The position numbers were made by a program, and so were the translations under genes. Positions 1,559 through 29,542 of a DNA stretch of 34,947 bases are shown in pieces. Each line of letters begins with the position of its first letter. Position 1 is the first letter of the stretch. Under the pieces are notes generated by a model. The model was not told the DNA's origin. It ran no database searches and saw only the letters and a program-made list of their open reading frames with translations. The stretch covers positions 1-34,947 of the forward strand of contig CAZJVP010000067.1 of NCBI GenBank assembly GCA_964549615.1. Direction: 5' to 3'. This DNA comes from an uncultured Thermococci archaeon. GTDB lineage: Archaea > CAYQAE01 > CAYVLA01.

Positions 1559-3364
1559 CTAGATCTTCACGAAGTCAAGCCCCAGCTCGTCCAGCGTCTT
1601 CCTGGTGGGAATGCCGTTTGAGTCCCATCCCCTGACCGCGTAGTAGCTGTCCAGCATCTCCTCCAGCTTCACAGTCACTCCCCGTGACCCGCCTTTCAGC
1701 AGGGGCTCCTTGATGAACCGATCGGGCAGGCGGTCATCGCGCCGGTCGAAGCCCTCGCGCACGTTGAAGGCCCTCTCGAGAGAGTACACGCGCTCGCCGA
1801 TAGTCATGATATCCTCTTGATTGTACTCGACACCGGTGACGGCCTTGAGGAGGCGCGCAAGGTACTCCTGGTTCACGTTGTAGCCCAGGAACTTGCACAC
1901 GACCAGCGAATCCATGGCGGCATATAGGTCCTGCCCACGAACAAGCAGGTCGGCCTTGCCTGACCAGCTGAACCTATCGATCAGTTTGGGGACGCCAAGT
2001 ACTTCCCAGCCAATCATGTAGCCGCGCAGGTGGCATCCGCCGCGGTTGGAGGTCGCATAGGCCAGCCCCATCCCCTGCGAGCCCCTAGGATCGTACGCTG
2101 GAAGCTCCAACCCCTTGACGCTCATCGAGTACTGCCCCGCCCCGTATCGCTCGGCGAAGCGTTTCGACCCCTCCCCGAGCTCCAGGCCAAGCCCCTCCCG
2201 GCACGCGATCTGCGGAATGAGGGCCTTCAGCTTCTGGCCGTCGCCGAACTCGACCTTCTCCTTGAGTATGCCCCGCTGGGAGAGCTCCATCGCACAGCCG
2301 ATGGTGACCCCGGTCGAGATCGTGTCCAATCCATAGTCGTTGCACAGGTAGTTTGCCTCTGCCACCGTCTCCAGATCGAAGACTCCACACTCGGGCCCCA
2401 GCGCGAATGCTGTCTCATACTCGGGGCCGTCTCCCGATGCCCTGGAGGTGGCCGTCTTTCTACCACAGCCTATCGGGCAGCCGAAACACGCGCTCCGCCT
2501 CTTGAGTATCTTTTCGGTCACCGACTCCCCCGAAACGTCGTCGGCCTTTTCGGAGAAGCCCTCCTGGAAGTTGCGGACCGGGAGAAGGCCGTGCGAGTTG
2601 ATGACGTTCATGAGCACGTTCGTGCCGAACTTGGGCAAAGCACGCGACGTGATGGGGCTCTCGTCAAGCTTCTTCTTCGTCTCCGCAACATAGAACTTGA
2701 GCGACTCCGGATCCGCAACCTCTACCCTGGCGGACCCTCTTACGAGGATGGCCTTGAGGTTCTTTGATCCCATGACCGCTCCGACCCCGCCCCTCGCTGC
2801 TACCCCGCCTCTACCCCCATCACCCCTCTTGTCGAACATTATCGAAGAAATGAGGACAAGCCTTTCCCCCGCGGGGCCAATGCATGCAACCCGAAATTCC
2901 CTGCCACCGTATCCAGCAAGGGTTTGGGTAGCCTCGTGGACCCTCATTCCCCAGTAGTCGCTGCCGTCCTTAATGTCGACCGCATCCTCCTCGATCACCA
3001 AGAGGCATGGCTTTTCAGCCCTCCCCTCAATGACTAATGCGTCGTAGCCGGCCCTCTTCAGTTCAGGGCCCCAGCTTCCTCCCGCGTTGGCATCGAGTAT
3101 CGTGTTTGTGAGGGGCGACTTGGTCGAGACGCTCATCCTGCCCGAGGTGGGAACGGCCGTACCTGTCACAGGTCCCGTGGCGAAAATGAGCTTGTTCCCG
3201 GGGCTGAGGGGATCCAGGCCGGGTCTCAGCTCCTCGTAAAGCATTCTTGCGGCGAGCCCGCGCCCACCGAGAAACTTCTGCAGGTCAGAGCGCCGGGGAA
3301 CCTCCCTGGAGATTCTGCCCGAAGTAAGATCAACCCTGAGAATCGAGTTCATCCAGCCGTGCGT
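1559..3364 (-). CDS. aor: Tungsten-dependent aldehyde:ferredoxin oxidoreductase family protein
   Basis: LGGRG, KSPLT, GPAGE, RGGVGAVMGSKNLKAI, CFGCPIGC (4Fe-4S), GPEYET, DTIS, YDPRG, RGGCH, DDRLP-RF. The start is uncertain: ACG at 3364 by SD spacing, ATG at 3352, or GTG at 3433 from the ORF track. Confidence 0.95.
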   Translation of the reverse strand, partial: THGWMNSILRVDLTSGRISREVPRRSDLQKFLGGRGLAARMLYEELRPGLDPLSPGNKLIFATGPVTGTAVPTSGRMSVSTKSPLTNTILDANAGGSWGPELKRAGYDALVIEGRAEKPCLLVIEEDAVDIKDGSDYWGMRVHEATQTLAGYGGREFRVACIGPAGERLVLISSIMFDKRGDGGRGGVAARGGVGAVMGSKNLKAILVRGSARVEVADPESLKFYVAETKKKLDESPITSRALPKFGTNVLMNVINSHGLLPVRNFQEGFSEKADDVSGESVTEKILKRRSACFGCPIGCGRKTATSRASGDGPEYETAFALGPECGVFDLETVAEANYLCNDYGLDTISTGVTIGCAMELSQRGILKEKVEFGDGQKLKALIPQIACREGLGLELGEGSKRFAERYGAGQYSMSVKGLELPAYDPRGSQGMGLAYATSNRGGCHLRGYMIGWEVLGVPKLIDRFSWSGKADLLVRGQDLYAAMDSLVVCKFLGYNVNQEYLARLLKAVTGVEYNQEDIMTIGERVYSLERAFNVREGFDRRDDRLPDRFIKEPLLKGGSRGVTVKLEEMLDSYYAVRGWDSNGIPTRKTLDELGLDFVKI

Positions 3365-3504
3365 AGATTCACCGCCAAGTGACCCGTCCTCCGGACCCTT
3401 ATCCGCTTTAATGTTTCCACCGACACGGCTCACAAACCGCTTGCGATTTGGTTGTCGGAAACAGCTTTTAGGCGACGCCAGGGCCGTAAAGTGGGTGGGC
3501 TCGT

Positions 3505-16940: not shown

Positions 16941-18014
16941 CTAGCACCGGACGGGCAGCCGACCGTGCTTCATCACGGTCTGCGTGATGGCCTCAAGCCC
17001 ACGGTCCCTCTGGGCGGGCGGCACCGTCTCGGTTATGCCAAGGACGAGGCCTTTTCCGGGGCTTGCCTGGCTCAAGAGATTTCGCACGTACCCTCGTATC
17101 CCCTCGGAAGCCCTGTAGAATATGACCTCGGGGATGTTGACCCAAATGGCGAGCTTCTCGCCCCATAGGGCTCGCGCCTCCCTGAGCCCGAGGTCCCCGA
17201 TGGGGGGCGGCGTGAAGGCCTCCACCACGTCCAGGCCCGTCTCCGGCAGCAGATCCTTTAAGCACCTCAACCGCCCGTCCATGTGTGACTGGACGATCTT
17301 TCCCCCGGAGTGCAGAATGTCGGAGTAGCTCTGGTAGTAAGGGATGCAGTAGCGACGGAAAAGGTCGGGATTCACCAAGACCCCGTCGATGTTGTCGCCC
17401 ACGTTCACTATCCTCGGCGGGGCACGAGCGACGATCCTCATCCTCTCCTGGACCTTCAGGTCGATCGCCTCCATCAGCTCCTCCACCTTCTCCCTCCTCC
17501 TCCTGAGCTCGACGACGAACCTCCTGAAGCCCATGTAGTTGACGATCAGTTGCATGAGGGGCGTGTAGCCCGTGCCGACCTGAAGGACGCCGTGGTCGGC
17601 AACCTCCTGCATCCTTTGCTCCAAGTCCGCGTATGCAGGCTTGCAGACCTCATCCTCGATGATGAACTTCACGACCCTGTAGTCATCCGGCCCCTTGATC
17701 ATCCGCTCGACGACCCATCTGTCTCCCCTTTCTCCACCCTCGGACGGCAGGTTTATCCTAGTCTTCTGGGTCACCTCGCCAACGGGCGTCTTGTAGGTCG
17801 TGACGGAATAGTCGCCCAGCGTCTGCGTCTCTGAGGTCACGTTGGGCGTGGAGGCCTTGAAGACCGATGTCGGATACGCGATCCCCATGCCCGCCTTCAG
17901 CAGCGCCTCGAGTACCTGAGGGTCCCGCGGGGTGTGCCCTTTCTTGGGCATCCACGGCACGTAGTCCGGCTCGCCCCAGGTCAAGGCTTGTATCGCCCTC
18001 TCCCTCATCCTCAA
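16941..18014 (-). CDS. Uroporphyrinogen decarboxylase/MtaA-like methyltransferase family protein
   Basis: RER---AL----PD-VP, TP-G, MG---F, P-LF--Y--PYY, SHMDG, EAFTPPP-GD, TE-VP. SD GCGGTGA 5 nt before TTG 18014. Confidence 0.85.
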   Translation of the reverse strand: MRMRERAIQALTWGEPDYVPWMPKKGHTPRDPQVLEALLKAGMGIAYPTSVFKASTPNVTSETQTLGDYSVTTYKTPVGEVTQKTRINLPSEGGERGDRWVVERMIKGPDDYRVVKFIIEDEVCKPAYADLEQRMQEVADHGVLQVGTGYTPLMQLIVNYMGFRRFVVELRRRREKVEELMEAIDLKVQERMRIVARAPPRIVNVGDNIDGVLVNPDLFRRYCIPYYQSYSDILHSGGKIVQSHMDGRLRCLKDLLPETGLDVVEAFTPPPIGDLGLREARALWGEKLAIWVNIPEVIFYRASEGIRGYVRNLLSQASPGKGLVLGITETVPPAQRDRGLEAITQTVMKHGRLPVRC

Positions 18015-18154
18015 CTGGATCACCGCGGCCAGCCGTGGGACGCTCTTCAGGTTCGCCTTTCTGGGGATATCTACATTTATGTAGCACCGATCTGCATGGC
18101 CCGCAGAGGGCACAGGACTTGCGCACGATAACGCACCCAATAACCGGAAAGGAG

Positions 18155-19147
18155 ATGCCCGAGTTCCTCACTGGCGTCATCACCCCCATGCTGACGGCGT
18201 TGAATGAGGACCTCACGCTCGACGAGGAAGGCAACAGATCGCTCATCCAGTGGTACAAGAAGACGGGCGCAGTGACCACGGTCTTCGCCAGATCCGGGGT
18301 GGGGCAGATGGCACATTTCTCCTTCGAACAGGTCAAGACTCTCATCGACATCGCGGTGGACGAGGCAGGGGACGAGATCTTCGTCCTTGCCGGGACGTCC
18401 GGGACGCTCGGCGGGCGAGATCCGGCCAGAAGACCGTCGGAGCAGAAATACGTGGAGGAGACGCTGGAGCTCAGCCGTTACGCTGAAAGGCAAGGGGCAA
18501 CGGGCGTTGTCATCGTATGCCTGGGCTTGGAACCCTCCTCCAACCTGGCGGACAAGATCTTCGACTTTTTCAAAAGGGTCAATGCCTCGATCGACATCCC
18601 CATAGTGATCTACGAACCGCCCGCGACAAACCCAGCCTACAGCATAACCCCTGCCCTCCTCCACAGGCTTGCGGACCTGCCCAAGGTCAAAGGGATGAAG
18701 CTGTCCTCCCCCGACATGCTCAAGTTCGGGCTACTTTGCGATGCGACCAAGGACCAGGACTTCACCATGATCTCAGGGCACGAGGGCGCCTTCCTCACCT
18801 CGCTCGTCTTGGGCGCAGGCGGGGTGATAGGTGGAGGCTGCAACACCCACCCAGAGCTGATACGCGAGATCTTCGACGCCTTCATGGCGGGAGACTGGGA
18901 GAGGGCTCGAAGGGCACAGTTCGAAGTTGCCAGGCTGTTGGGAACGAGGACGCTGGTCCGCGACCCTTACTCGGGGGTTGCTCTCAACGCAGCAAAGATC
19001 TACCTTGCCAGGAAGGGCGTGAAGGTCAAGCCGTACCATTGGCCGGAAGGGAGGTCCGAAAGCGGAAGAACGGACCTAACCGAGAAGGATCTGGACCTGG
19101 CCAAGAAGGCGATAGATGAGGCGCTGCAGTCGATCAGGAGAATCTAG
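18155..19147 (+). CDS. Dihydrodipicolinate synthase/N-acetylneuraminate lyase family aldolase
   Basis: GVITP--T, IP-VIYE-P (catalytic Tyr), GMKLS (Schiff-base Lys), GA-G-IGG--N--PE. SD AAAGGAG before ATG 18155. Confidence 0.88.
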   Translation: MPEFLTGVITPMLTALNEDLTLDEEGNRSLIQWYKKTGAVTTVFARSGVGQMAHFSFEQVKTLIDIAVDEAGDEIFVLAGTSGTLGGRDPARRPSEQKYVEETLELSRYAERQGATGVVIVCLGLEPSSNLADKIFDFFKRVNASIDIPIVIYEPPATNPAYSITPALLHRLADLPKVKGMKLSSPDMLKFGLLCDATKDQDFTMISGHEGAFLTSLVLGAGGVIGGGCNTHPELIREIFDAFMAGDWERARRAQFEVARLLGTRTLVRDPYSGVALNAAKIYLARKGVKVKPYHWPEGRSESGRTDLTEKDLDLAKKAIDEALQSIRRI

Positions 19148-20193
19148 AAAGCCTTCCAGCCCTCTTCGTATCCCTTCTCGTACATCGCGACGACGTTCTC
19201 GGGCGGGGTGTTCGCCTGTATGTTGTGGCATGGCGCCAAAATGTAGCCGCCTCCCCTGCCCAGGATGCGCAGGTTCTCCACGACCTCCCTCCTGACATCC
19301 TCCACCGTTCCGAACGGCAGGGTCTGCTGGTTGTCCATCCCCCCGTGGAAGACCAGTTTCTGGCCGAAGTCGCGCTTCAGCCCCTCCCGGTCCATGCCCC
19401 TGCAGCGCCACTGAATGGGGTTGAGCACGTCTATGCCGGCCCTCACCATGTCCGGAAGTATCTGCCGGATGGCCCCGTCGCTGTGGTGGAACACATACGC
19501 CCCTTCGGAGTGTGCAAGATCGATCACCCGCTTCATCCTAGGGATCAGGAACTCCCTTATCTGCGCAGGCGACATCAAAAGGCCAGTCTGGGATCCCAGG
19601 TCCTCCGCCACATAGGTGATCATCACCTGGCCCGGGATCTGCTCATAGATCCTTCGGGTGTTCTCGTAGGCCAGATCGAACAGCTTGTCCAAGCAGTAAT
19701 GAACGATGTCTGGGTGACGGACGAGGTCAACATAGCCCTGCCACTGTCCGCGAAGATTCTTGTAGACCAAGAACGGCTCAGACCCACCACCCCTGATGGG
19801 GCGGTTTTCCATCCCCTTGATCTGGCCCGGTATGCCAGAGTAATCCCACCAATCCGGGTCGGGCCACTCATAGTTCCGCTTGATCTCCTCCAGACTTGAG
19901 TACTGGGCGAGCGGGTGGTACACAACCTCGGTGTACACGCCGGTTCCGTAGTGGACGTCCTTGTACCTGCAACCGTAGATATCCTCCCCCTCCGGCGGCT
20001 TCGGCCCGACGTACCTGGGGGCCACCGTAACCGGCGTGTCGATGTGGAGGATCTCCAAGGCTTCGTCCAGATTCTTGCAACCCAGATACCTGACCAACCT
20101 CTCGTTTGCCTCGTTCGTCGCCCAGTAGTCCATGGGCACCCGGTCAGGCCTCCTTCGCTGAAGCACCGCGAGCCAACGCTCCCTGGGGGTCAT
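19144..20193 (-). CDS. Uroporphyrinogen decarboxylase/MtaA-like methyltransferase family protein
   Basis: MTPRER-LA-L----PDRVP, HPL, WPDP, EDLGSQ, HHSDG, LNPIQ, FHGG-D-Q, GGYILAPCHNIQ--TP-EN. A possible CTG start lies at 20208. Confidence 0.9.
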   Translation of the reverse strand: MTPRERWLAVLQRRRPDRVPMDYWATNEANERLVRYLGCKNLDEALEILHIDTPVTVAPRYVGPKPPEGEDIYGCRYKDVHYGTGVYTEVVYHPLAQYSSLEEIKRNYEWPDPDWWDYSGIPGQIKGMENRPIRGGGSEPFLVYKNLRGQWQGYVDLVRHPDIVHYCLDKLFDLAYENTRRIYEQIPGQVMITYVAEDLGSQTGLLMSPAQIREFLIPRMKRVIDLAHSEGAYVFHHSDGAIRQILPDMVRAGIDVLNPIQWRCRGMDREGLKRDFGQKLVFHGGMDNQQTLPFGTVEDVRREVVENLRILGRGGGYILAPCHNIQANTPPENVVAMYEKGYEEGWKAF

Positions 20194-20388
20194 GGTTTCC
20201 TTTGGCAGACTATCCGCTCCTCTCCCGCGGGTCGCCAGCAGGCGTTTATTTGTTTCACTGTGGGGCAGGCGCACGGAGCCGCAGCGAGCCCATGAAGCGC
20301 TAGCACTTGCCGCTGGGACGCCGCGTCCATTCGCCACAAGCATGCCTTTTCCGCACGTCGGGTCGGTTCTCACGAAGGTCGAGCGTAT

Positions 20389-21498
20389 CTACGCCTGTAC
20401 TGCAGCCGGCCCGAGGTCGAATCCGGCCTTCATGGCTCGGTACCTCTGGTAGTGGCAGAAATTCTGCCAGGAGATGTCGGGGGGCACGGAGTGGTCGATG
20501 TGGGCGATGTACCCGCCCGTAGCGACGACCGGCCAGACCCTGTCCACCTCGGCCTCTATCTCGGCTTTTCCTTTGGTGAGGGCCTGCTTGTCGATGCCGC
20601 CGAACATGACCAGTTTCCGTCCATACTCCTTCCTGAGTTGTCGCACGTCCATGCCGGACCGCACCTCAAGCGGCCAGATGGCGTTGAGCCCGGCCTTGAG
20701 CCATAGGGGGATGAGGGTGCGCACATCGCCATCGCTGTCCACGCCGATCAAGTCCACGCCTCGCGATCGCAGGTACTTGCACACTATCCTGTACCTAGGA
20801 AGCATGAACTCCTTAAACATCTCGGGGGCAAGCAGGGGCCCGGTTCGGTACGCCATGTCCTCCCAGAAGCCGAATATGTCGATGTCGACATCGTCCAGCA
20901 TCTTGCCCAGGATGGCGAGGAGAACCTCAACACGCTGATCCATCATCTTCTCGACGAATTCCGGCCTCTCGTAGAAGGCCCTGCAAAGGTTCTTCAGGCC
21001 CAGCAGGTTCCGCAACGGGCCGAAGAAGCCGCCCCACCTGTCCGGGAAGTACATCAGCGGCGCGGTCCTTTTCTTCCACTCCTTCACTCTCGCCTCCCAG
21101 TCCTTCGGGAATCTCTCATCCAGCTTGGGCGCCAGCCTCTCTCTGACCAGACGATCGAAGTCCTCCTCGGTCTCCACCGGGAACTTCACGAACTGGGGCA
21201 TGCTCGACCAGCCCCTGTGCTCCTTGAACTCACGCTTCAGGATGCCCTCGTGGTCGATGTAAAGGACGGTTTCAGTGGTCTCCTCGATGACGGTCTTCTC
21301 GAACGGGGGCCAGGGGCCAGCCGATACCGGCACGCCCAGCATCGGGTCGTGGGGGAATATCTCGTGTATCGGGCGCCCGTCCCAGCCCTCTTTTCGCCAT
21401 CTGGCTTCGGTCTCGGGCCACGTTCCCTCGCCCGAGATCCAAGGCCGGTCGGGCTTCTCAAAGTGTGTTATGGCATGGTACCTTTCCCTCGGGGTCAT
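20389..21498 (-). CDS. Uroporphyrinogen decarboxylase/MtaA-like methyltransferase family protein
   Basis: MTPRER------F-KPDR, W-ET--RW--EG, EDMAY--GP, VDSDG, P-EV--GMD, GGIDK, GGYI---DHSVPPD. TATA TTTAAG about 26 nt upstream of ATG 21498. Confidence 0.9.
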   Translation of the reverse strand: MTPRERYHAITHFEKPDRPWISGEGTWPETEARWRKEGWDGRPIHEIFPHDPMLGVPVSAGPWPPFEKTVIEETTETVLYIDHEGILKREFKEHRGWSSMPQFVKFPVETEEDFDRLVRERLAPKLDERFPKDWEARVKEWKKRTAPLMYFPDRWGGFFGPLRNLLGLKNLCRAFYERPEFVEKMMDQRVEVLLAILGKMLDDVDIDIFGFWEDMAYRTGPLLAPEMFKEFMLPRYRIVCKYLRSRGVDLIGVDSDGDVRTLIPLWLKAGLNAIWPLEVRSGMDVRQLRKEYGRKLVMFGGIDKQALTKGKAEIEAEVDRVWPVVATGGYIAHIDHSVPPDISWQNFCHYQRYRAMKAGFDLGPAAVQA

Positions 21499-21593
21499 GC
21501 GCGCAGGCCGGAAGGCGGCCAAACTTAAATGAATGGGTGGTCGCCTCCAGCTGGCGGCAGTGGAGCTTTCCTGGAAACGATTCCGGCGTCCGG

Positions 21594-22400
21594 CTAATCC
21601 CGTCGCGCAAGCTCCCGCATGGCCTCGTCCACCCCCATGTTCTCGTGGACTATGCCCGCTATCGCCCAAACCATCTTCGTCGGGTCCTTTGCCTGGAAGA
21701 CATTCCTCCCGATGCTTGCGCCTGCTGCGCCAGCCTGGACGGCTCCCCAAACCGTCTGCAGCAGCTCCTTTTCCTGGCCTCTTGCGGGTCCTCCGGCTAT
21801 TACCACGGGCGCGGGGCATCCCTTGACGACTTCCCTGAATGAGTCGATATCTCCGGTGTAGTTGGTCTTCACTATGTCGGCGCCCAGTTCGGCCCCGACC
21901 CTGGCCGCAAGCTTCACCGAATCGACGTCGAACTCGCTTGGCACCTTCGGGCCCCTGGGGTACATCATGGCAACGAGCGGCATTCCCCAGTGCATGCACT
22001 TCTTTGACACGCGGCCAAGGCTTGCGAGCATCTCGGATTCGTTCTCGGCCCCTACGTTGATGTGCACGCTGACAGCGTCTGCTCCAAGTTTTATCGCTTC
22101 CTCAACCGTCATGACCAGAACTTTGTTGTCCGGGTTGGGCGAAAGCTTGGTGCTTGCCGAAAGGTGCAGTATGAGGCCGATGTCCCTACCGTAGTGCCTG
22201 TGGCCGAACATCACCAAGCCCCTGTGCCCGATGACGGCGTTGGCCCCGCCGTTTGCCACCTGATCCACTGCCCTCGCCATGTCTATGAGGCCGGGAACCG
22301 GGCCGAGCGTGACGCCGTGATCCATCGGTACGATCACCGTCTTGCCCGTCTCCCTGTTCATGATCCTTTCCATTCTAACTGCTTTGCCTATCTGGGTCAT
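21594..22400 (-). CDS. aroA': 2-amino-3,7-dideoxy-D-threo-hept-6-ulosonate synthase (archaeal class I aldolase, DhnA family)
   Basis: [80 protein letters not shown]. Closely follows the MJ0400-type pattern as I recall it. Confidence 0.85.
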
Positions 22401-22738: not shown

Positions 22739-23554
22739 CTACCTGATGAGCACTACAGCCGCCGAAACGATCCCCAACGAACCCAATGAAACGGCCCAGT
22801 CGCAGAGGCGGAGGCGACTCTCCCTCAGGAAGGTTCGCCTGCCCTTAAGGCCAAAGCCCCTTCCTTCCATGGACACCGATATGGTGCCTATCCTTTCCAG
22901 GGCCGAGACGATGAGGGGCGTGAAGGTATACCTTGCCAGACGCACAAGGGCGCGAGGCCCGGGGACATCGATCTTCAAACCCCTGGCCAGCTGGGCCCTC
23001 CTCACGGTATTGGCCTCAAGCTGGAATATCGGGATGAACCTGAGGGCGAGAACGAGCATGAAGCCGTACCTGTAGGGCACGCCGTGGCTAATCAAGGAGC
23101 ACGCAAGCCGTGCGGGCTCGGTTGTCGTCACGAAAAAGATGCTGGAAATCAGTATCATCAGCAGCCTCGAGGCCATCACTGCCCCCTTTACAAGCCCGCC
23201 GGAAGTTATCACAAGGTCGGCCCCGATCCCCACAGCCCGAAGGTCAAGGCCGCACAAGGGCCTGCCTGCCCGGGTGAAGAGGACCTGTAGGAGGAAAAGG
23301 ATTGCCAGCAGCCAGATGAGGAACCTGAGCCTCCCTAGGATCCTACGCAGGCCGACCCTGGACCTCCATACCAGAATGAACGCCGACGCCAAACCAGCCA
23401 GCATGAGGCACAAACTACGGGCAAGGACGGCGAGAGCGCAGAAACACGAGAGGATCACGATCTTGGTGAGCGGATCGAGCCGGTGTGCGAACGACTCACC
23501 ATCTGCGTATCCAAGCACGCTCAAGAGCCTCTCCACCCCTCGGGCAGATACCAT
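22739..23554 (-). CDS. ecfT: ECF transporter transmembrane T component
   Basis: HRLDP-TK, TT-P--L---L---G-P, ALRFIP, the two conserved motifs AQLARG and MEGRGF, RTF. Confidence 0.93.
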   Translation of the reverse strand: MVSARGVERLLSVLGYADGESFAHRLDPLTKIVILSCFCALAVLARSLCLMLAGLASAFILVWRSRVGLRRILGRLRFLIWLLAILFLLQVLFTRAGRPLCGLDLRAVGIGADLVITSGGLVKGAVMASRLLMILISSIFFVTTTEPARLACSLISHGVPYRYGFMLVLALRFIPIFQLEANTVRRAQLARGLKIDVPGPRALVRLARYTFTPLIVSALERIGTISVSMEGRGFGLKGRRTFLRESRLRLCDWAVSLGSLGIVSAAVVLIR

Positions 23555-24984
23555 TTCTCATCCTCTTTGTCAAGAGTTGAGAAGACATGGTCCGGAGGCC
23601 CCTGAACGAGCACCCTTCCCCGCTTGAGGAAGGCGATCCTGTCGCAGGATTCAGAGGCGAGATCCGGATCGTGTGTCACCAACAGGCACGATGCTCCGCG
23701 ATCGACCTTCTCGCGAACGATCGCCATGATCCTGTCCACGTTTCCCTGGTCTTGGCCCACGAAGGGCTCATCAAGCAGGTATAGGTGAGGTTCGTACACG
23801 ACCACCGACGCGACGTTCAACCTCCTCTTTTCGCCGAGGCTGAGGGCGTGAGGGGACGACTCTCCCCTATCCCGCAACCCGAGGGTTGCAGCCACGTCGG
23901 ACAGGCGAGCGTCCGCCTCTTCCCTCGGAATCCCGAAGTTCCTAGGACCGAAGAGGATCTCGTCGTTGATGGAGGACTCGAATATCTGGTGGTTGGGATT
24001 CTGGAAGACCATTCCAACCTCGCGCGCGATGGCAGAGGTAACCTCCACCCGGCGCCCTGCAAACTTGACCTGGCCGCGCGAAGGCCTCAGCATCCCCATG
24101 ATCATGAGAAGGAGCGTCGTCTTGCCCGATCCATTGTCGCCCATGAGGCCGACCATCTCGCCCCGCCGGATGTCGAGGGTAACATCCTTCAACACCTCGG
24201 TTCCATCGTATGCAAAGCTGACGTGCTCGATGAGCAGGAGGGGGTCGGGGGACAACGTCTTGGGAGGCTGCCTGCGTGCCGCACTCCTCGCCTGCGTCTT
24301 CTCAATCAGCGGACAGGAGTGTAGGGCGGAGACGGAGCCGTGCGACAGGACCGCCATCCTGCTTGCCCGGGCTGCTATCCACGAATACCGATGCTCGATC
24401 ACAACGATCGTCACTCCCTGTGAATTCAGGCGGCCAAGAACATCTCCTATCTCCCATGCGGAGCGCGGATCCAAGCTCGAGGTGGGCTCGTCAAGAATGA
24501 GGACTTTCGGCCTCAGCGCGAGAATGGACGAGATGGCCACCTTCTGAAGCTCGCCTCCTGAAAGACTTGAGATCTGTCTCTCGGAAAGGCCGATGGACCC
24601 TGTGGATTCCAAGGCCCACGATATCCTCTCTTCCATCTCCCTACGGCCCACGCCCATGTTCTCAAGCCCGAAGGCCAGTTCATCCTTGACGTTCAGGGTC
24701 ACCATCTGCGATTCTGGGTCCTGCTGCACGAGGCCCACGAGGCCTACCAGGTTTTGCCTGGGGACGGCGTGAACATCGACCCCGTCGATCAGGACCTTCC
24801 CTTCCATCTCTCCGCTCCCGGGCCCCAGAAAGCCGGCCATGATCTTGGCAAGCGTGGTCTTGCCGCTGCCGCTTTCGCCGATGATCAGGAAGATCTCCCC
24901 GTCAGCTATCCGAAGGTCTATGTTCTGAAGCGCGGGCAGGGTGCACGACCGGTATCTAAAAGATAGGCCCTCAAGATCGATCAA
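23521..24984 (-). CDS. ecfA: ECF transporter ATPase with two fused nucleotide-binding domains
   Basis: GESGSGKTT / QDPESQ / LSGGE / LDEPTS, then GDNGSGKTT / FQNPNHQ / LSLGEKRR / LDEP / VTHD. Confidence 0.95.
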   Translation of the reverse strand: MIDLEGLSFRYRSCTLPALQNIDLRIADGEIFLIIGESGSGKTTLAKIMAGFLGPGSGEMEGKVLIDGVDVHAVPRQNLVGLVGLVQQDPESQMVTLNVKDELAFGLENMGVGRREMEERISWALESTGSIGLSERQISSLSGGELQKVAISSILALRPKVLILDEPTSSLDPRSAWEIGDVLGRLNSQGVTIVVIEHRYSWIAARASRMAVLSHGSVSALHSCPLIEKTQARSAARRQPPKTLSPDPLLLIEHVSFAYDGTEVLKDVTLDIRRGEMVGLMGDNGSGKTTLLLMIMGMLRPSRGQVKFAGRRVEVTSAIAREVGMVFQNPNHQIFESSINDEILFGPRNFGIPREEADARLSDVAATLGLRDRGESSPHALSLGEKRRLNVASVVVYEPHLYLLDEPFVGQDQGNVDRIMAIVREKVDRGASCLLVTHDPDLASESCDRIAFLKRGRVLVQGPPDHVFSTLDKEDEKWYLPEGWRGS

Positions 24985-24987
24985 TGT

Positions 24988-26022
24988 TCATCTCACTTCC
25001 ACTCTGACGATTCCCTGTATCCACTGGGAACCGTCAAGGTCGTCAGCGACGAGGCTGGATCCATTTCCTGCCCTCACGACTATGATCTCGGGGTTCTCCA
25101 TTACCTGGTGCAGATCCAGCACCACGGAGTACCCGTCGGAAGCCACCAGCCTGACCCTTGACGCGGAAGCCTTCGGGGCAGCCCTTCGTAGGATGGCTGA
25201 CAGCGGCACGCCCGTGTAGTTCCTCGGCTCCAGGTGTATGTACGATCCTTTCAGCTCAGCCTGCACGGTCACTAGGTCCTCGTGGAAATCCGACTCCCTG
25301 TAGTTGAATGGCCTCTCGACCAAGCCTTCCACCTCGAACGAACTGGTCTTTTCCCAACGGTACGCGCAGGCAAAGAACCACAACGCTCCACCGACGAATA
25401 CCGCCATCAACACGTAACCCAGCCGCATCCTCCATCGATGGGCTCCGGATGGCCGGGGCACGGCTTTCAGCAGCCCCGAGCTAGACAAGGAAACCAGCAC
25501 GTGGTGGCAGAAATACCCACCGAATATCACCCCCGAGGCAAAAGCCATCGCGGCAATCACCGAGACCAGCAGGAAGGGGACGCCCGAGAGAAACAACGCT
25601 TGGAAGACGAACACGTTGGAGGCGGTCGCCAGCCCGCCCGCCAAGAGGATCTGGACCGAGCTCTCAGGCCGGGACTTGACCATCGCTGCATCCACGATCA
25701 TCCCTTCCACAGTGGAGACGAGCACGACAAGTGCCCCGTGAATGCTACCCGAAAGCATCTCGACCATGCCTTTGAGCGCGCCCGCCAGCGTGCCGGATCC
25801 CGTCTTCCCGGTGACGCATCTGGCCAGCAGGAGCCAGAACACGTGGAGGCCGGCGAGGAACTGGCCTGCCCCAAACGGCGTCCCGACGAAATCGTTCACG
25901 AGATTGGCTAGGTAGCCAACGTAGGTGCTGAGAACGCCCCCCAGAGCACTGAGGATCGAGATCGTGACAAGGTCGGTCGTCGTGAGATGCTGATGCGGCC
26001 TTGCCAGCTTCATTCCCATCAC
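24988..26022 (-). CDS. ECF S-component (YkoE-like) fused to a C-terminal molybdopterin-binding-like (Oxidored_molyb) domain
   Basis: About 6 TM helices with T-DLV---ILSALGG and K-GSG-LAG--KG-VE, a further TM helix, then V-G-VERP...YTGVPLS-IL...ASDGY...G-QW------V. Alternative ATG starts at 26019 and 26013. Confidence 0.85.
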   Translation of the reverse strand: MMGMKLARPHQHLTTTDLVTISILSALGGVLSTYVGYLANLVNDFVGTPFGAGQFLAGLHVFWLLLARCVTGKTGSGTLAGALKGMVEMLSGSIHGALVVLVSTVEGMIVDAAMVKSRPESSVQILLAGGLATASNVFVFQALFLSGVPFLLVSVIAAMAFASGVIFGGYFCHHVLVSLSSSGLLKAVPRPSGAHRWRMRLGYVLMAVFVGGALWFFACAYRWEKTSSFEVEGLVERPFNYRESDFHEDLVTVQAELKGSYIHLEPRNYTGVPLSAILRRAAPKASASRVRLVASDGYSVVLDLHQVMENPEIIVVRAGNGSSLVADDLDGSQWIQGIVRVEVR

Positions 26023-26041
26023 GGCGTAGGGTCCGACCGCG

Positions 26042-27928
26042 CTACGGGAGGACCATTTCTATCCTTGCTATGTTCTTCACCATCTGTTTGCTGCTAAGCC
26101 CCTCCCCGACAAGCCTCAACGGCCATTCATCGGTCAGGATGTCTCCGTCCTTGAGGTAGGCTAGGATGATCTTGTCGTTGCGCCAAAGCATCGTGCTGTT
26201 GACCGTTGCAGTGAAGCCGTCCGATGCGACGATCCTAACCTCATACCCCCTTCTGGCAAGGTCGTCGTCAAAAAGGTAGTGGCCCTCTGGATCGTCCTTT
26301 CCGTCCACGATGCTGATGATGATCCAGAGGGGAAGCCCCTCGTAAAGGTGGGTCTCGCCCTTGATCGTGACGTTCAGCGCGGTCCTGTGCTTGGTGCATG
26401 TCGCTGCGGACTGGAAGGTGGTTCTGTTCAGGACATACTCCGACTTGCCTGACAGCACAACGGTCCAGTCTTTGACGGGCCTCACGACTCTCAGCCCCAC
26501 GACCTGCTTGACCCAGTAGTGGCCGTCGGTGATCGCGTCGCCCTGCCCTACGAATGCCAGGCGCAACGGCATTCCGCTGAACCGGCGGCTCCCATCCTCC
26601 TCGTAGTACAGGATGCTGGTCAGTGACCCGATGCCCATGCTCTGGCCCCGCACATCGTATACCCTGACCTTTCCCTCAACCTCGGACCGGCTCAGCGTCA
26701 TGACATAACCGTCCGATCCGGTAACCTCGACGCTGTAGTTCTCGGGAAGATCTCCGGCCTGCCGCAGGACGGTGAGCAGCGGAACACCGACAAGTTCGTA
26801 AGGCCCCACGACGGCACCAGTTGTCTTCAGATACCCTCCTCGGCCTCGGACCTGCTCGAGAGCAGTCACCTCGCCGAAGTAGAGCGTCCTTGAAGTTACG
26901 CCCTTCACGCTCAGCACCCAGAGCGGAAGGAGCTCTGCCCTTGCCAGATCCGCCAACACCCAATCGGGGCAGGCAAGCACAGGAGGGCCGGCCAAAGGCT
27001 GTCCGTCCATGCAGTCCGCGACGACGATGGCATCGTTCTTAGCCACCCGGCCGCTCTCCAGACTCACTGAGCCCTCCCCCGTGAGCCTGATCTCGTAGCC
27101 CGACTCCGCGTAGCTTAGGTTGAATGAGTCCTCGCCCCGCCTCTTGCCGCCGTCGATCAGTGCAAGCAACCTCCACAATGCGATTCCGCTCCAGGCCCTC
27201 CCTTGGGGATCGGTCACGTTGACCCTGGCATCGAAGCACAGGGTCCCGAACTCGGTCCGGGAAAGGTTCTTGGTTTGTGAGCCGGCAAGCCAGAGGAACC
27301 ACTCGTGGCCGAAGGCGGGTCCCGGCAGGACGTCGATTCTCCAAACGTTCCTGACCATGCGCCCTCCAGCCGAGGGATTCAGGAAGTATCCCTGGCCCGC
27401 GGCGGACGTGTAGCGCGCATCCTCGTTGCTGAACTCTCCATCATCGGGCAGGAAGACCATGCGCGGTCCCTCCTCCCAGCCTGGAATCCGCGTGCCGTCC
27501 TTCGACAGGGCAAGGATGAGATGACCCTGTAGCGAGTGCAGGTCCGAATCGGGGTAGACGTTGAAGTAGGAGTATTCCTGCAGGTAGCCATCGGTGCTGG
27601 ATACCCTTAAGATATCTCCAGGTGCCATCCCCCCAACCTCCTCCACCAATCTGGACACCAATACTCCCTCGTACGTTGCCGGGGCATCCCAGTTGCCGAC
27701 CCTGTTCTCAAACGCCACAACTCCGGACACCGAAGCCAAGGCCTCCAGATCCGAGTAGCGGAGCACGCGAGTGACGCCGTCTTTTCCCGTGATGGTGACA
27801 TTCGGGTACGTCCCGGTCTCGCTCGTGCCCCTGGCGCGAAAGCCTAGATAGGCTAGCCCTGTGCAGAGGACGGCGGCCGCGAACACGAGGAGGCCAATCT
27901 CCACCTTTCGACTTTCGAGAGCAGGCAT
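26042..27928 (-). CDS. Membrane-anchored protein with four tandem molybdopterin-binding-like (Oxidored_molyb) domains
   Basis: N-terminal TM anchor, then four repeats carrying (Y/W)-G(V/I/L)-L, mostly V---DG(Y/F), IL-----DG, P-R(L/M) and (W/M)V(K/R)-V--I. Confidence 0.8.
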   Translation of the reverse strand: MPALESRKVEIGLLVFAAAVLCTGLAYLGFRARGTSETGTYPNVTITGKDGVTRVLRYSDLEALASVSGVVAFENRVGNWDAPATYEGVLVSRLVEEVGGMAPGDILRVSSTDGYLQEYSYFNVYPDSDLHSLQGHLILALSKDGTRIPGWEEGPRMVFLPDDGEFSNEDARYTSAAGQGYFLNPSAGGRMVRNVWRIDVLPGPAFGHEWFLWLAGSQTKNLSRTEFGTLCFDARVNVTDPQGRAWSGIALWRLLALIDGGKRRGEDSFNLSYAESGYEIRLTGEGSVSLESGRVAKNDAIVVADCMDGQPLAGPPVLACPDWVLADLARAELLPLWVLSVKGVTSRTLYFGEVTALEQVRGRGGYLKTTGAVVGPYELVGVPLLTVLRQAGDLPENYSVEVTGSDGYVMTLSRSEVEGKVRVYDVRGQSMGIGSLTSILYYEEDGSRRFSGMPLRLAFVGQGDAITDGHYWVKQVVGLRVVRPVKDWTVVLSGKSEYVLNRTTFQSAATCTKHRTALNVTIKGETHLYEGLPLWIIISIVDGKDDPEGHYLFDDDLARRGYEVRIVASDGFTATVNSTMLWRNDKIILAYLKDGDILTDEWPLRLVGEGLSSKQMVKNIARIEMVLP

Positions 27929-27931
27929 GAG

Positions 27932-27955
27932 CGATATGTTCGCGTGAGCATATCG
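27932..27955. promoter_or_regulatory. ModE-type palindromic operator CGATATGTTC-GCGT-GAGCATATCG
   Basis: 10-bp arms with one mismatch, 24 bp in total, fitting CG-N-TAT-N12-ATA-N-CG. Lies between the minus-strand TATA (TTAAAA, 27963-27968) and ATG 27928. Confidence 0.7.
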
Positions 27956-28102
27956 ACCTTTTTTTTAACTCTTTCCATCGGGCGTCCTAGGGAAAGAGCC
28001 CTTGGGAAAAAAAGCCCCGCAGCCCTTCCTGAAAGCCGGGAACACTTATCAGCGAAAGCCGGTCCGCGTGTCGAAAACCCAGGTGGACGAGAGAGGTCAG
28101 GA

Positions 28103-29542
28103 TTGGAGATAGATCTCGGACTCGGAAAGGGGTTCTCTTTCTACCGGAGGCAGAAGGCCAACTTCAAGGTGCTCAACGCGAGGACCACCCTCGGCAGCTT
28201 CCTTGGGAATCTTACCGCCCCCTATGACCAGGTCTATGCCAAGGAACTGGGAGCTGAGCCGGTGGAGTTGGGATTTCTTTCCTCGGTCGGATCGGCCTTC
28301 GCCGCATCCTTTGCGCTGCCCGGCGGTTTTCTTGCCGATAGATGCGGGAGGAAGAAGCTGTATCTCATCGGGAGCCTGGTGGGTCTGCTCACACCCATGG
28401 TTTACTTCCTCGCGCCAAGCTGGGTCTGGTTGGTACCGGCCTACGTTTTCTCGAACGTCATGATCGCGCTGAGGGAACCCGCCTACCAAGCCATGTATGC
28501 GAGCTCCGTCGAGCCGCGCGACAGGGGGATTGCCTTCGGGATAGGGTCGACGCTCACGAGCATTCCAGTCATGCTGGCCCCGATTGCCGCGGTCGAGCTC
28601 ATGGGACATCCCGCCGCGATCACCGCTGGCCGGATACGACCACTCTACCTCCTCCAACTGATCGGGCTAGCTGCCCTATGGGTATTCGTGTTCCTACTCT
28701 TGACCGAGGAGGGCCGGAACTGGGTTGGAATTAGATCCGCCTTCGGCCCAACGGATCTTCTCTTCCTCTCCCCGTTCATCGCGATTCCACCCGCGGCCTG
28801 TCTCGTTATGGGATTGGCCCAAGGGATCAGCACAGCCGGCCTGATCCCCCTCGTATTCATGGCCTTAAGCCCCCTTCCTCTGGTCGTCGCATGGCACAGA
28901 CATCGGGATGCAACGCCGGCGCAGGAAAGCCTGAGACAGGGCGTGGGCAGGATGTTGAGCCTTCCTGGCGTCAAGGCATGGTTGGCCATGAAGGGAACCG
29001 GTGCCGCCGCCATGGGGCTGGCAAGCCCCTTCTGGCTCGTCTATGCCGCGTACGTTATCGGGGTGTCGCCCGCAGGACTAGCCTTGATGGTCAGCCTCAG
29101 GACCGTCGGCCAGCTGGTTTCGGCCCTGCCTTGGGGTATCGCGGCCGACCGAAGGGGTCGCAAGTTCACCCTGCTTTTCGGCAGGTCCTTCATGCACATC
29201 GGAATCCTCTGCTTCATATTCTCAAGGAGCCCCTGGATGCTCATCCTGGGCTACGCCCTGATGGGCGTCGCAGATGGATCCGCGTGCGTCTGGACCGTCA
29301 TAAGGATGGAGCTGGTTCCCCCTGAATCCCGGAGCGCGATGGCCAGCATGGACGCCTTCGTTTGGTATCTGCCGGTCATATTCGCAGCGATGTTGGGCGG
29401 GATAATCTACTCCTTCTGGACCAAGCTCATCTTCATCCTCTGCTTTGCGATAGATGTCGGGATCAGAATGCCGCTCGTGGCTTTCGGGGTCCCAGAGACC
29501 TCGAAGACGATTCACGCCGAGTCATGGGCTTCGGCCCGGTAG
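28103..29542 (+). CDS. Major facilitator superfamily transporter
   Basis: Motif A appears twice (GFLADRCGRKK; GIAADRRGRK), with RG-A-G and ELVP-E-R and many TM segments. SD GAGGTCA before TTG 28103. Confidence 0.9.
   Translation: MEIDLGLGKGFSFYRRQKANFKVLNARTTLGSFLGNLTAPYDQVYAKELGAEPVELGFLSSVGSAFAASFALPGGFLADRCGRKKLYLIGSLVGLLTPMVYFLAPSWVWLVPAYVFSNVMIALREPAYQAMYASSVEPRDRGIAFGIGSTLTSIPVMLAPIAAVELMGHPAAITAGRIRPLYLLQLIGLAALWVFVFLLLTEEGRNWVGIRSAFGPTDLLFLSPFIAIPPAACLVMGLAQGISTAGLIPLVFMALSPLPLVVAWHRHRDATPAQESLRQGVGRMLSLPGVKAWLAMKGTGAAAMGLASPFWLVYAAYVIGVSPAGLALMVSLRTVGQLVSALPWGIAADRRGRKFTLLFGRSFMHIGILCFIFSRSPWMLILGYALMGVADGSACVWTVIRMELVPPESRSAMASMDAFVWYLPVIFAAMLGGIIYSFWTKLIFILCFAIDVGIRMPLVAFGVPETSKTIHAESWASAR

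Follow-up and report, generated by a model that had tools for sequence, protein, structure and literature searches.

What is imported by a transporter whose extracytoplasmic parts are built like the cofactor domain of sulfite oxidase? The question is posed by a four-gene operon on the minus strand (22739-27928) of a 34,947-nucleotide stretch of DNA, here called the window, from an uncultured Thermococci archaeon (contig CAZJVP010000067.1 of assembly GCA_964549615.1). A first-pass annotation, made from the letters of the window alone, had read the operon as a Mo/W-regulated energy-coupling factor (ECF) transporter for a pterin cofactor or a metal. We compared the operon with its relatives, their regulatory elements and the cofactor genes of their hosts, and consider it likely that it encodes a dedicated group-I ECF importer which salvages the pyranopterin cofactor of tungsten and molybdenum enzymes from the surroundings, as tungsten or molybdenum cofactor (Wco, Moco) or as near-mature molybdopterin. 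The pterin-cofactor side of the annotation is now supported by independent comparative evidence; binding and transport themselves are predicted.

The operon consists of four tightly packed open reading frames (ORFs), with gaps of 19 and 3 nt followed by a 34-nt overlap; SUOX/PruR-like denotes domains resembling sulfite oxidase (SUOX) and the pterin-binding protein PruR:

26042-27928, minus strand: P0001, 628 aa, extracytoplasmic protein with an anchor helix (residues 4-32) and four SUOX/PruR-like domains, proposed to capture and relay the cofactor
24988-26022, minus strand: P0002, 344 aa, ECF S-component of the YkoE/PF09819 family with a seventh helix (residues 196-220) and a C-terminal SUOX/PruR-like domain (residues ~225-344)
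23521-24984, minus strand: P0003, 487 aa, fused EcfA-EcfA' double ATPase
22739-23554, minus strand: P0004, 271 aa, EcfT (CbiQ family) scaffold subunit

P0003 joins ECF_ATPase_1 and ECF_ATPase_2 in one chain (TIGR04520, 359.7 bits, residues 2-220; TIGR04521, 355.7 bits, residues 252-473; both above the cut-offs), P0004 matches the CbiQ/EcfT family in Pfam (PF02361, E 2.3e-26) and the S-component matches PF09819 over residues 17-133 (E 3.4e-16). EcfT and two EcfA domains are encoded beside the S gene, in an order that is alike in the loci surveyed. By gene content the operon is a dedicated group-I ECF transporter, for which ATP-driven import is predicted. The first-pass annotation had described this same layout, namely the tight operon, four Oxidored_molyb-like domains in P0001, a fifth fused to the S-component, and the double ATPase beside EcfT, and the ORF coordinates, family matches and structural comparisons given here bear it out.

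The AlphaFold model of P0002 (pLDDT 89.5) comprises a helical S-component, the seventh helix and a β-rich C-terminal domain. Its core is matched best, among solved structures, by the ECF S-component 5edl (Foldseek TMt 0.76), which we take to be YkoE with thiamine. ECF S-components are generally described with both termini in the cytoplasm; because a seventh helix is added here, the C-terminal domain would sit outside. Pfam recognizes this domain weakly as Oxidored_molyb (PF00174, residues 264-326, E 1.6e-5), and its Foldseek matches are the Moco domains of SorA, SoxC, YedY and sulfite oxidase, together with PruR pterin-binding proteins. A search of solved structures with the C-domain profile, at E up to 1, returned SoxC and SorA only, and no PruR; the profile aligns to the WxGVPL and YWVK regions of SorA and SoxC. 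The residues invariant in the S-component alignment include AEL.G, Y-T-G, D-G-Y and G..W. By sequence alignment, the C-domain contains an invariant Tyr (in N-Y-T-G) and an invariant Trp (in G..W), possible counterparts of the pterin-stacking Tyr and Trp of PruR.

P0001 is modeled (pLDDT 82.2) as an N-terminal helix (residues 4-32) followed by four β-rich modules (residues ~41-205, 206-336, 337-485 and 486-628). Module 1 aligns in VIA-align with residues 98-312 of chicken sulfite oxidase (3hbg, Z 15.9) and with PruR structures (Z 14.1-15.1, the highest for 7kom; r.m.s.d. 2.6-3.1 over 132-136 residues). PruR structures match the SUOX/PruR-like domains with Foldseek TMt values of 0.60-0.74. The PF00174 match of P0001 lies solely in its last domain (residues 569-625, E 5.2e-9). 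BLASTP connects module 2 with module 4 (E 1.7e-10), and modules 3 and 4 with the C-domain of P0002 (E 1e-7 and 4e-6, respectively); modules 2 and 3 are assigned their fold by transitive homology, having no fold match of their own. The closest folds overall are the Moco domains of sulfite oxidases and PruR, in agreement with the Oxidored_molyb assignment that had been proposed for checking. NCBIfam NF041762 (GEGP motif-containing diheme protein) gives weak partial matches to residues 54-128 of P0001 and to L024:6873-7913, from a bacterial relative (E 1.6e-7 and 2.9e-6); by sequence, that family may contain a related module.

No Mo-ligand cysteine is conserved in the invariant or near-invariant C-domain columns of a 26-sequence alignment or of the C-domain part of the S-component alignment. 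The sequence of module 1 of P0001 holds no cysteine, and a Pfam scan of the operon proteins found neither a Mo-co dimerisation domain nor a haem domain. PruR is described as binding free pterins in the periplasm through a SUOX fold without the Mo-ligand cysteine (PMC11194511). We regard the domains of the operon as binding modules of the PruR kind and not as SUOX enzymes; judged from the models, they are small extracytoplasmic SUOX folds lacking the Mo-ligand cysteine, with pterin binding predicted.

Searching 8000 candidates for the fused S-component yielded 262 proteins at E ≤0.001; 249 relatives come from one-genome-per-species contigs (185,579 species), and 80 loci were kept for analysis. 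The relatives carry the labels Thermoplasmata, Thorarchaeota, Hadarchaeota, Odinarchaeota, Bacillota (Pelotomaculum, Syntrophaceticus), Thermotogae and Bipolaricaulota, and judging from their names all carriers appear to be anaerobes. The closest named relative record (L001) is labeled Candidatus Hadarchaeota. A Metallophos phosphoesterase is encoded upstream of the S gene in 59/80 loci, or in 54/68 when the count is restricted to loci with over 2 kb of upstream sequence; in 47 it is directly beside the S gene. The N-terminus of this protein contains a hydrophobic stretch, and a module resembling module 1 of P0001 usually makes up the C-terminus; its nearest named relatives are, weakly, cyclic-nucleotide phosphodiesterases. 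The homologue in the genome of the window (G000) lies apart from the operon (C100:2735-4078, E 1.4e-71).

The regulatory elements of the bacterial operons are of a Mo/W-cofactor kind. The Rfam family RF01055, the riboswitch for Moco or tungsten cofactor (Tuco), is present at 13/21 bacterial loci, in the orientation of the operon (15 matches of 46-74 bits; gathering score 36), directly before the first operon gene in 11 and before the S gene in L038, where the ECF genes adjoin a ModA-like ABC system. Among the eight loci lacking a match, four have the operon start at a contig end or within ~100 nt of one. Stem P3 is absent from all 14 alignments inspected (L027, the remaining match, was not among them), and excerpts of Regulski et al. 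(PMC2408646) associate the P3-less form with tungsten-cofactor genes. A thiamine pyrophosphate (TPP) riboswitch precedes none of the 21 bacterial operons; the lone TPP match (L003, 2323-2435) lies on the opposite strand, ~2.4 kb upstream of the Moco riboswitch. L003 is labeled Betaproteobacteria, and its operon and riboswitch are nearly the same as in the Bacillota loci L005, L016 and L024, so that the label may be a binning error. Two Pelotomaculum loci have another Moco riboswitch, again P3-less, on the downstream side of the ECF operon (L032:12282-17028 and L038:12278-12398); in L032 it is followed by an open frame of ~1415 aa that contains a single PruR-like module.

A scan of the window for riboswitches found no RF01055, only a tRNA. 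The operon carries instead the ModE-type palindrome that had been noticed over its promoter at first pass:

27932-27955, no strand assigned: ModE-box-like operator, CGATATG-N10-CATATCG, flanked by the TATA-like run and, 3 nt away, by the ATG start codon
27960-27969, minus strand: TATA-like run, T8AA, TTAAAAAAAA on the coding strand, ~32-41 nt upstream of the ATG, putative promoter element judged by its sequence

The box of the window, CGATATGTT-N6-AGCATATCG, agrees with the E. coli ModE consensus CGNTATATA-N6-TATATANCG, as quoted in PMC545781, in its 9+6+9 layout and in the outer CGNTAT...ATANCG. Nowhere else in the 3.21-Mb genome is CGNTATG-N10-CATANCG matched at 12/12. The palindrome is kept at the same place in two carriers of the same phylum, G052 and G054 (CGATATGCA-N6-TGCATATCG and CGTTATGCA-N6-TGCATATCG), and both of these relatives also keep the AAAGAGTT(T)AA flank. 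We surveyed the loci for CGNTAT-N12-ATANCG or TATGC-N8-GCATA, with at least 9/10 positions matching, within 300 nt of the operon start. Such a box is present in 39 of 49 evaluable archaeal loci compared with 0 of 18 bacterial loci, with 21 matches elsewhere in ~1.0 Mb. A stricter pattern retains 31/49 archaeal loci, and several of the remaining ones have visible box variants. Other boxes in the genome of the window are of the 9/10 type only, and the best of them (C104:64278), which lies inside a 410-aa ORF, was taken as chance; the region upstream of the separate Metallophos gene on C100 has no such box.

A candidate regulator is encoded elsewhere in the same genome:

G000:C72:57628-57897 (L087:1348-1929), minus strand: ModE-like protein, adjoining a NikR-like gene; C-terminal ~55 residues without a family match

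This 193-aa protein is a homologue of the ModE N-domain (TIGR00637, 78.2 bits, E 1.1e-21, under the cut-off of 98.5 bits), has no Mop/TOBE match and, used as a phmmer query, finds no match in the 80 operon loci. It may bind the operator box. Together, the bacterial riboswitches, the archaeal operators and this homologue agree with the Mo/W-linked regulation proposed earlier.

Which cargo such control serves is suggested by the cofactor genes of the carriers, a profile that the first-pass annotation had itself proposed. The genome of the window (99.46% complete, 2.81% contamination) encodes five aldehyde:ferredoxin oxidoreductases (AORs, by AFOR_C) and a full-length Oxidored_molyb/SUOX enzyme (119.7 bits); one AOR gene lies in the window:

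1559-3433, minus strand: AOR, AFOR_N 259.9 bits, AFOR_C 497.8 bits, one of the five in the genome, outside the operon; candidate client of the transporter

Profile searches of this genome found no match to PF06463, PF01967, PF02391 or PF03453 (MoaA_C, MoaC, MoaE and MoeA_N), each of which was positive in 11 of 14 control genomes. Its sole PF00994 (MoCF_biosynth) protein is CinA-like, and its PF00384 match is a NuoG-like subunit beside NiFe-hydrogenase genes. No binding protein of the ModA, WtpA or TupA type was found in it, and a Pelotomaculum ModA-like query also gave no match; the families SBP_bac_11 and PBP_like_2 are matched in it by PstS and a PotD-like protein only. The class and phylum of the window comprise five species genomes in the collection searched: three have the transporter, five AOR genes each and no MoaC, one has MoaC and seven AOR genes and no transporter, and one has none of the three.

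The pattern extends beyond this phylum. In the first 50 of the 80 loci (L051-L080 left out) every carrier genome has AOR (50/50; 1-13 matches each), MoaC and MoeA_N occur together in 14, neither one without the other, and 36 lack both. By domain, MoaC occurs in 3/34 archaeal and 11/16 bacterial carriers, and carriers without MoaC recur in genomes labeled as several phyla. In a wider sample of 151 Thermoplasmata-class genomes of at least 85% completeness, the transporter is found in 27 and AOR in 81; each of the 27 has AOR as well, and the transporter is absent from all 70 genomes without AOR. MoaC occurs in 88/151 of these genomes and in 83/124 without the transporter, tallies that include the unpublished genome G133. 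It is intact in 3/27 carriers versus present in 42/54 AOR-positive non-carriers (Fisher p = 8.7e-9, uncorrected for kinship and hence overstated). In one carrier, moaC is full-length with five in-frame stops (G189:C4:48611-49027), and in another it is reduced to positions 62-136 beside an intact MoeA_N match (G007:C1:608214-608465); by sequence, these decayed genes may represent pathway loss in progress.

MoaE and MoeA are missing along with MoaC. Neither cyclic pyranopterin monophosphate (cPMP) nor a bare oxyanion would therefore suffice, and the imported species should be metal-loaded or nearly mature. Two options left open by the first-pass annotation, a precursor pterin such as cPMP and a metal, are on these grounds disfavored, and the intact cofactor is the option that we retain.

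We propose the following route. The tethered four-domain protein would bind the pterin cofactor outside the membrane, assisted in most relatives by the tethered Metallophos phosphoesterase with one more such domain. Before import, the phosphoesterase may cut back phosphoester derivatives of the cofactor, for instance its guanine or cytosine dinucleotides. The cofactor would then be handed to the like domain on the S-component, kept outside by the extra seventh helix, and be translocated by the S-component, with EcfT and the fused EcfA-A' ATPase powering the step. Its users inside the cell would be five AORs and a single SUOX-family enzyme, in an organism unable to make the cofactor. An ample supply of cofactor or metal probably silences expression, in archaea by a ModE-like repressor sitting on the operator over the transcription start and in bacteria by the P3-less, tungsten-cofactor type of Moco riboswitch. 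Complex prediction for P0002 and the P0001 ectodomain scored 0.00 and is evidence neither way. From the comparisons above we infer what is bound, how the domains relay it, what the phosphoesterase cleaves, which protein is the repressor and in which direction regulation works.

Several observations weigh against cofactor salvage. Moco is very labile. The genomes counted share ancestry and are not independent events, and gene absence is judged on metagenome-assembled genomes, with completeness known for the genome of the window and four of its kin only. Among the bacterial carriers, 11/16 keep both MoaC and MoeA, so that the ECF system would be at most a supplement there. Twelve AOR-positive Thermoplasmata-class genomes have neither MoaC nor the transporter. 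In two of them MoeA_N lies at a contig edge, and their MoaC may be lost to an assembly gap; in the other ten (G060, G066, G070, G080, G085, G097, G113, G125, G132 and G139) MoeA_N is absent as well. A looser search with the S-component alignment found C-domain-like parts only, in six of the twelve; two of these matches, when scanned, were canonical Oxidored_molyb enzymes (146.1 and 82.9 bits) and not transporters. G070 at least also has a canonical SUOX-type enzyme. Such apparent auxotrophs imply either that the transporter is not the sole route or that the search missed a variant. ModE boxes classically belong to oxyanion-uptake genes, and the operator would equally suit a tungstate importer. 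Tuco riboswitches in Eubacterium limosum also precede two iron transporters and a FocA-like gene, according to excerpts of PMC11725836, and the pocket of PruR is described as too short for Moco (PMC11194511).

These points bear on four other explanations. The operon might import another micronutrient that tungsten enzymes need or that co-varies with them (iron, a folate- or methanopterin-type pterin, or a queuosine precursor), with cofactor-responsive control only coordinating supply. The arrangement in E. limosum would fit this, as would PruR, which binds small non-Moco pterins (PMC11194511). We consider such a cargo unlikely, for it leaves unexplained both the frequent lack of the whole Moco pathway in carriers that keep AOR and the failure to find the transporter in any of the 70 AOR-negative genomes.

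An importer of tungstate or molybdate, with the SUOX-like domains capturing the oxyanion and the whole replacing ModABC, TupABC or WtpABC, has in its favor that ModE-type operators and P3-less Moco riboswitches typically control oxyanion transporters such as modABC and tupABC, that no binding protein of the ModA, WtpA or TupA type was found in the genome of the window, and that the ECF genes of L038 adjoin a ModA-like system. That last locus argues the other way too, since it already has such a system next door. The oxyanion is useless to cells without molybdopterin synthesis and MoeA, the situation of the 36 carriers lacking MoaC and MoeA_N and of the genome of the window, which also lacks MoaA_C and MoaE; the known ligands of the SUOX/PruR fold are pterins, and the conserved surface phosphoesterase has no role in oxyanion uptake. 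Altogether, this is an improbable reading.

An ordinary YkoEDC-type transporter for thiamine or hydroxymethylpyrimidine (HMP) with decorative extra domains is suggested by the PF09819 core, by the match to 5edl and by the JGI label "thiamin/hydroxymethylpyrimidine transport system permease" given to several homologues. With no TPP riboswitch before any bacterial operon, regulatory elements of the Mo/W-cofactor types and gene-content correlations that concern Moco genes, we hold it to be very improbable. Scarcely credible, finally, is a surface redox system of genuine tethered SUOX-type molybdoenzymes, with the ECF module unrelated or serving their maturation, as the Pfam name Oxidored_molyb and the title "molybdopterin-dependent oxidoreductase" of some database entries might imply: the C-domain (26 sequences) has no conserved cysteine and module 1 none at all, dimerisation and haem domains were not found, the genome cannot make the cofactor, and ECF systems are importers.

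Salvage of the finished pterin cofactor remains the reading that we prefer. A broader scenario, which we advance tentatively, is that uncultured anaerobic archaea (Thermoplasmata, Thorarchaeota and others labeled Asgard, and the small phylum of the window) and some bacteria gave up molybdopterin synthesis and metal insertion and live on ready-made W/Mo cofactor from their neighbors, imported intact by the ECF system after PruR-like capture and phosphoesterase trimming. Moco or Wco would then be a traded "vitamin", and this its first prokaryotic transporter. A full-text literature search, with supplementary riboswitch gene lists outside its scope, found no prokaryotic transporter of Moco, Wco or molybdopterin, and no ECF system tied to the Moco riboswitch, consistent with the earlier statement that no characterized ECF importer for molybdopterin, Moco or Wco is known. 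A 2026 review of bacterial pterin signaling gives the way in which pterins cross the membrane as unknown (PMC13259868), Moco is usually held not to be acquired as a nutrient (PMC9026282), and the only Moco uptake met in the literature searched is that of dietary Moco in nematodes.

If the proposal is true, a missing cofactor transporter has been named, and genomes with up to 13 AOR genes and no biosynthetic pathway are explained. Moco and Wco would join the cross-fed cofactors of anoxic sediments and hot springs. The system would suggest a supplement for cultivating such archaea and offer a way to bring a very labile cofactor into cells. It would also give a function to a widespread fusion (the 249 relatives) that is now named "thiamin/HMP permease" or "molybdopterin-dependent oxidoreductase".

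The remainder of the window adds some context. A tRNA lies at 3-94 on the minus strand, and a gene for the nickel-insertion GTPase HypB (691-1557; TIGR00073, 263.6 bits) is directly downstream of the AOR gene. Downstream of the operon, the interval 16941-21999 holds three URO-D/MtaA-like genes (16941-18140, 19144-20373 and 20389-21999), a DHDPS-family gene and a DeoC-family aldolase gene; no link between this cluster and the transporter was found. A divergent major facilitator superfamily (MFS) transporter gene (27944-29542, plus strand) shares the intergenic region with the operator; a 64% identical counterpart adjoins the operon in G052, and none is present in the stretch of G054 compared. 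In an index of sequencing runs, a hot springs metagenome DNA run has 0.96 of the words of the window stretch and two other DNA runs have small shares; no RNA run is listed.

How does the operon relate to known systems? Surface relays for large cofactors include the NEAT-domain relays for haem and the surface binders of B12 that work with ECF-CbrT or BtuB. The window operon shares with them tethered tandem binding domains before an importer, an analogy of design only, as folds and ligands are unrelated. With ModABC, TupABC and WtpABC it has in common the same two regulatory devices, ModE and the Moco riboswitch; those are binding-protein-dependent type-I ABC transporters, whereas the architecture here is that of an ECF system, and its carriers often lack the enzymes that use the oxyanion. 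The sulfite oxidase family (1sox/3hbg, SorA 2blf, SoxC 2xts, YedY/MsrP 1xdq) provides the Moco-binding fold, with Z values up to 15.9. Unlike its members, the domains described here have no conserved cysteine and no dimerisation or haem domain, and by these criteria are not enzymes.

PruR (PDB 7kom, 7kp2, 7rkb and 7kos) is likewise a small extracytoplasmic SUOX-fold module without the Mo-ligand cysteine. In Proteobacteria it is a stand-alone signaling partner of the cyclic di-GMP enzyme DcpA and binds small pterins; in A. tumefaciens the pterin ring is stacked between Tyr Y104 and Trp W160, with a hydrogen bond to Asn N102. The modules here differ in being arranged in tandem or fused to a transporter or phosphoesterase, in archaea and anaerobic bacteria, and no DcpA-like (GGDEF-EAL) domain was found among the window ORFs scanned.

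YkoEDC of Bacillus subtilis matches the operon in its PF09819 S-component family, fused double ATPase, dedicated EcfT and single-operon organization. The system described here departs from it in the seventh helix and outside SUOX/PruR-like domain of the S-component, in the multi-domain capture protein and the phosphoesterase, in control by a Moco/Tuco riboswitch or a ModE-like box instead of a TPP riboswitch, and in its link to the loss of Moco biosynthesis. It is thus a known kind of transporter, the ECF type, potentially with a new class of substrate.

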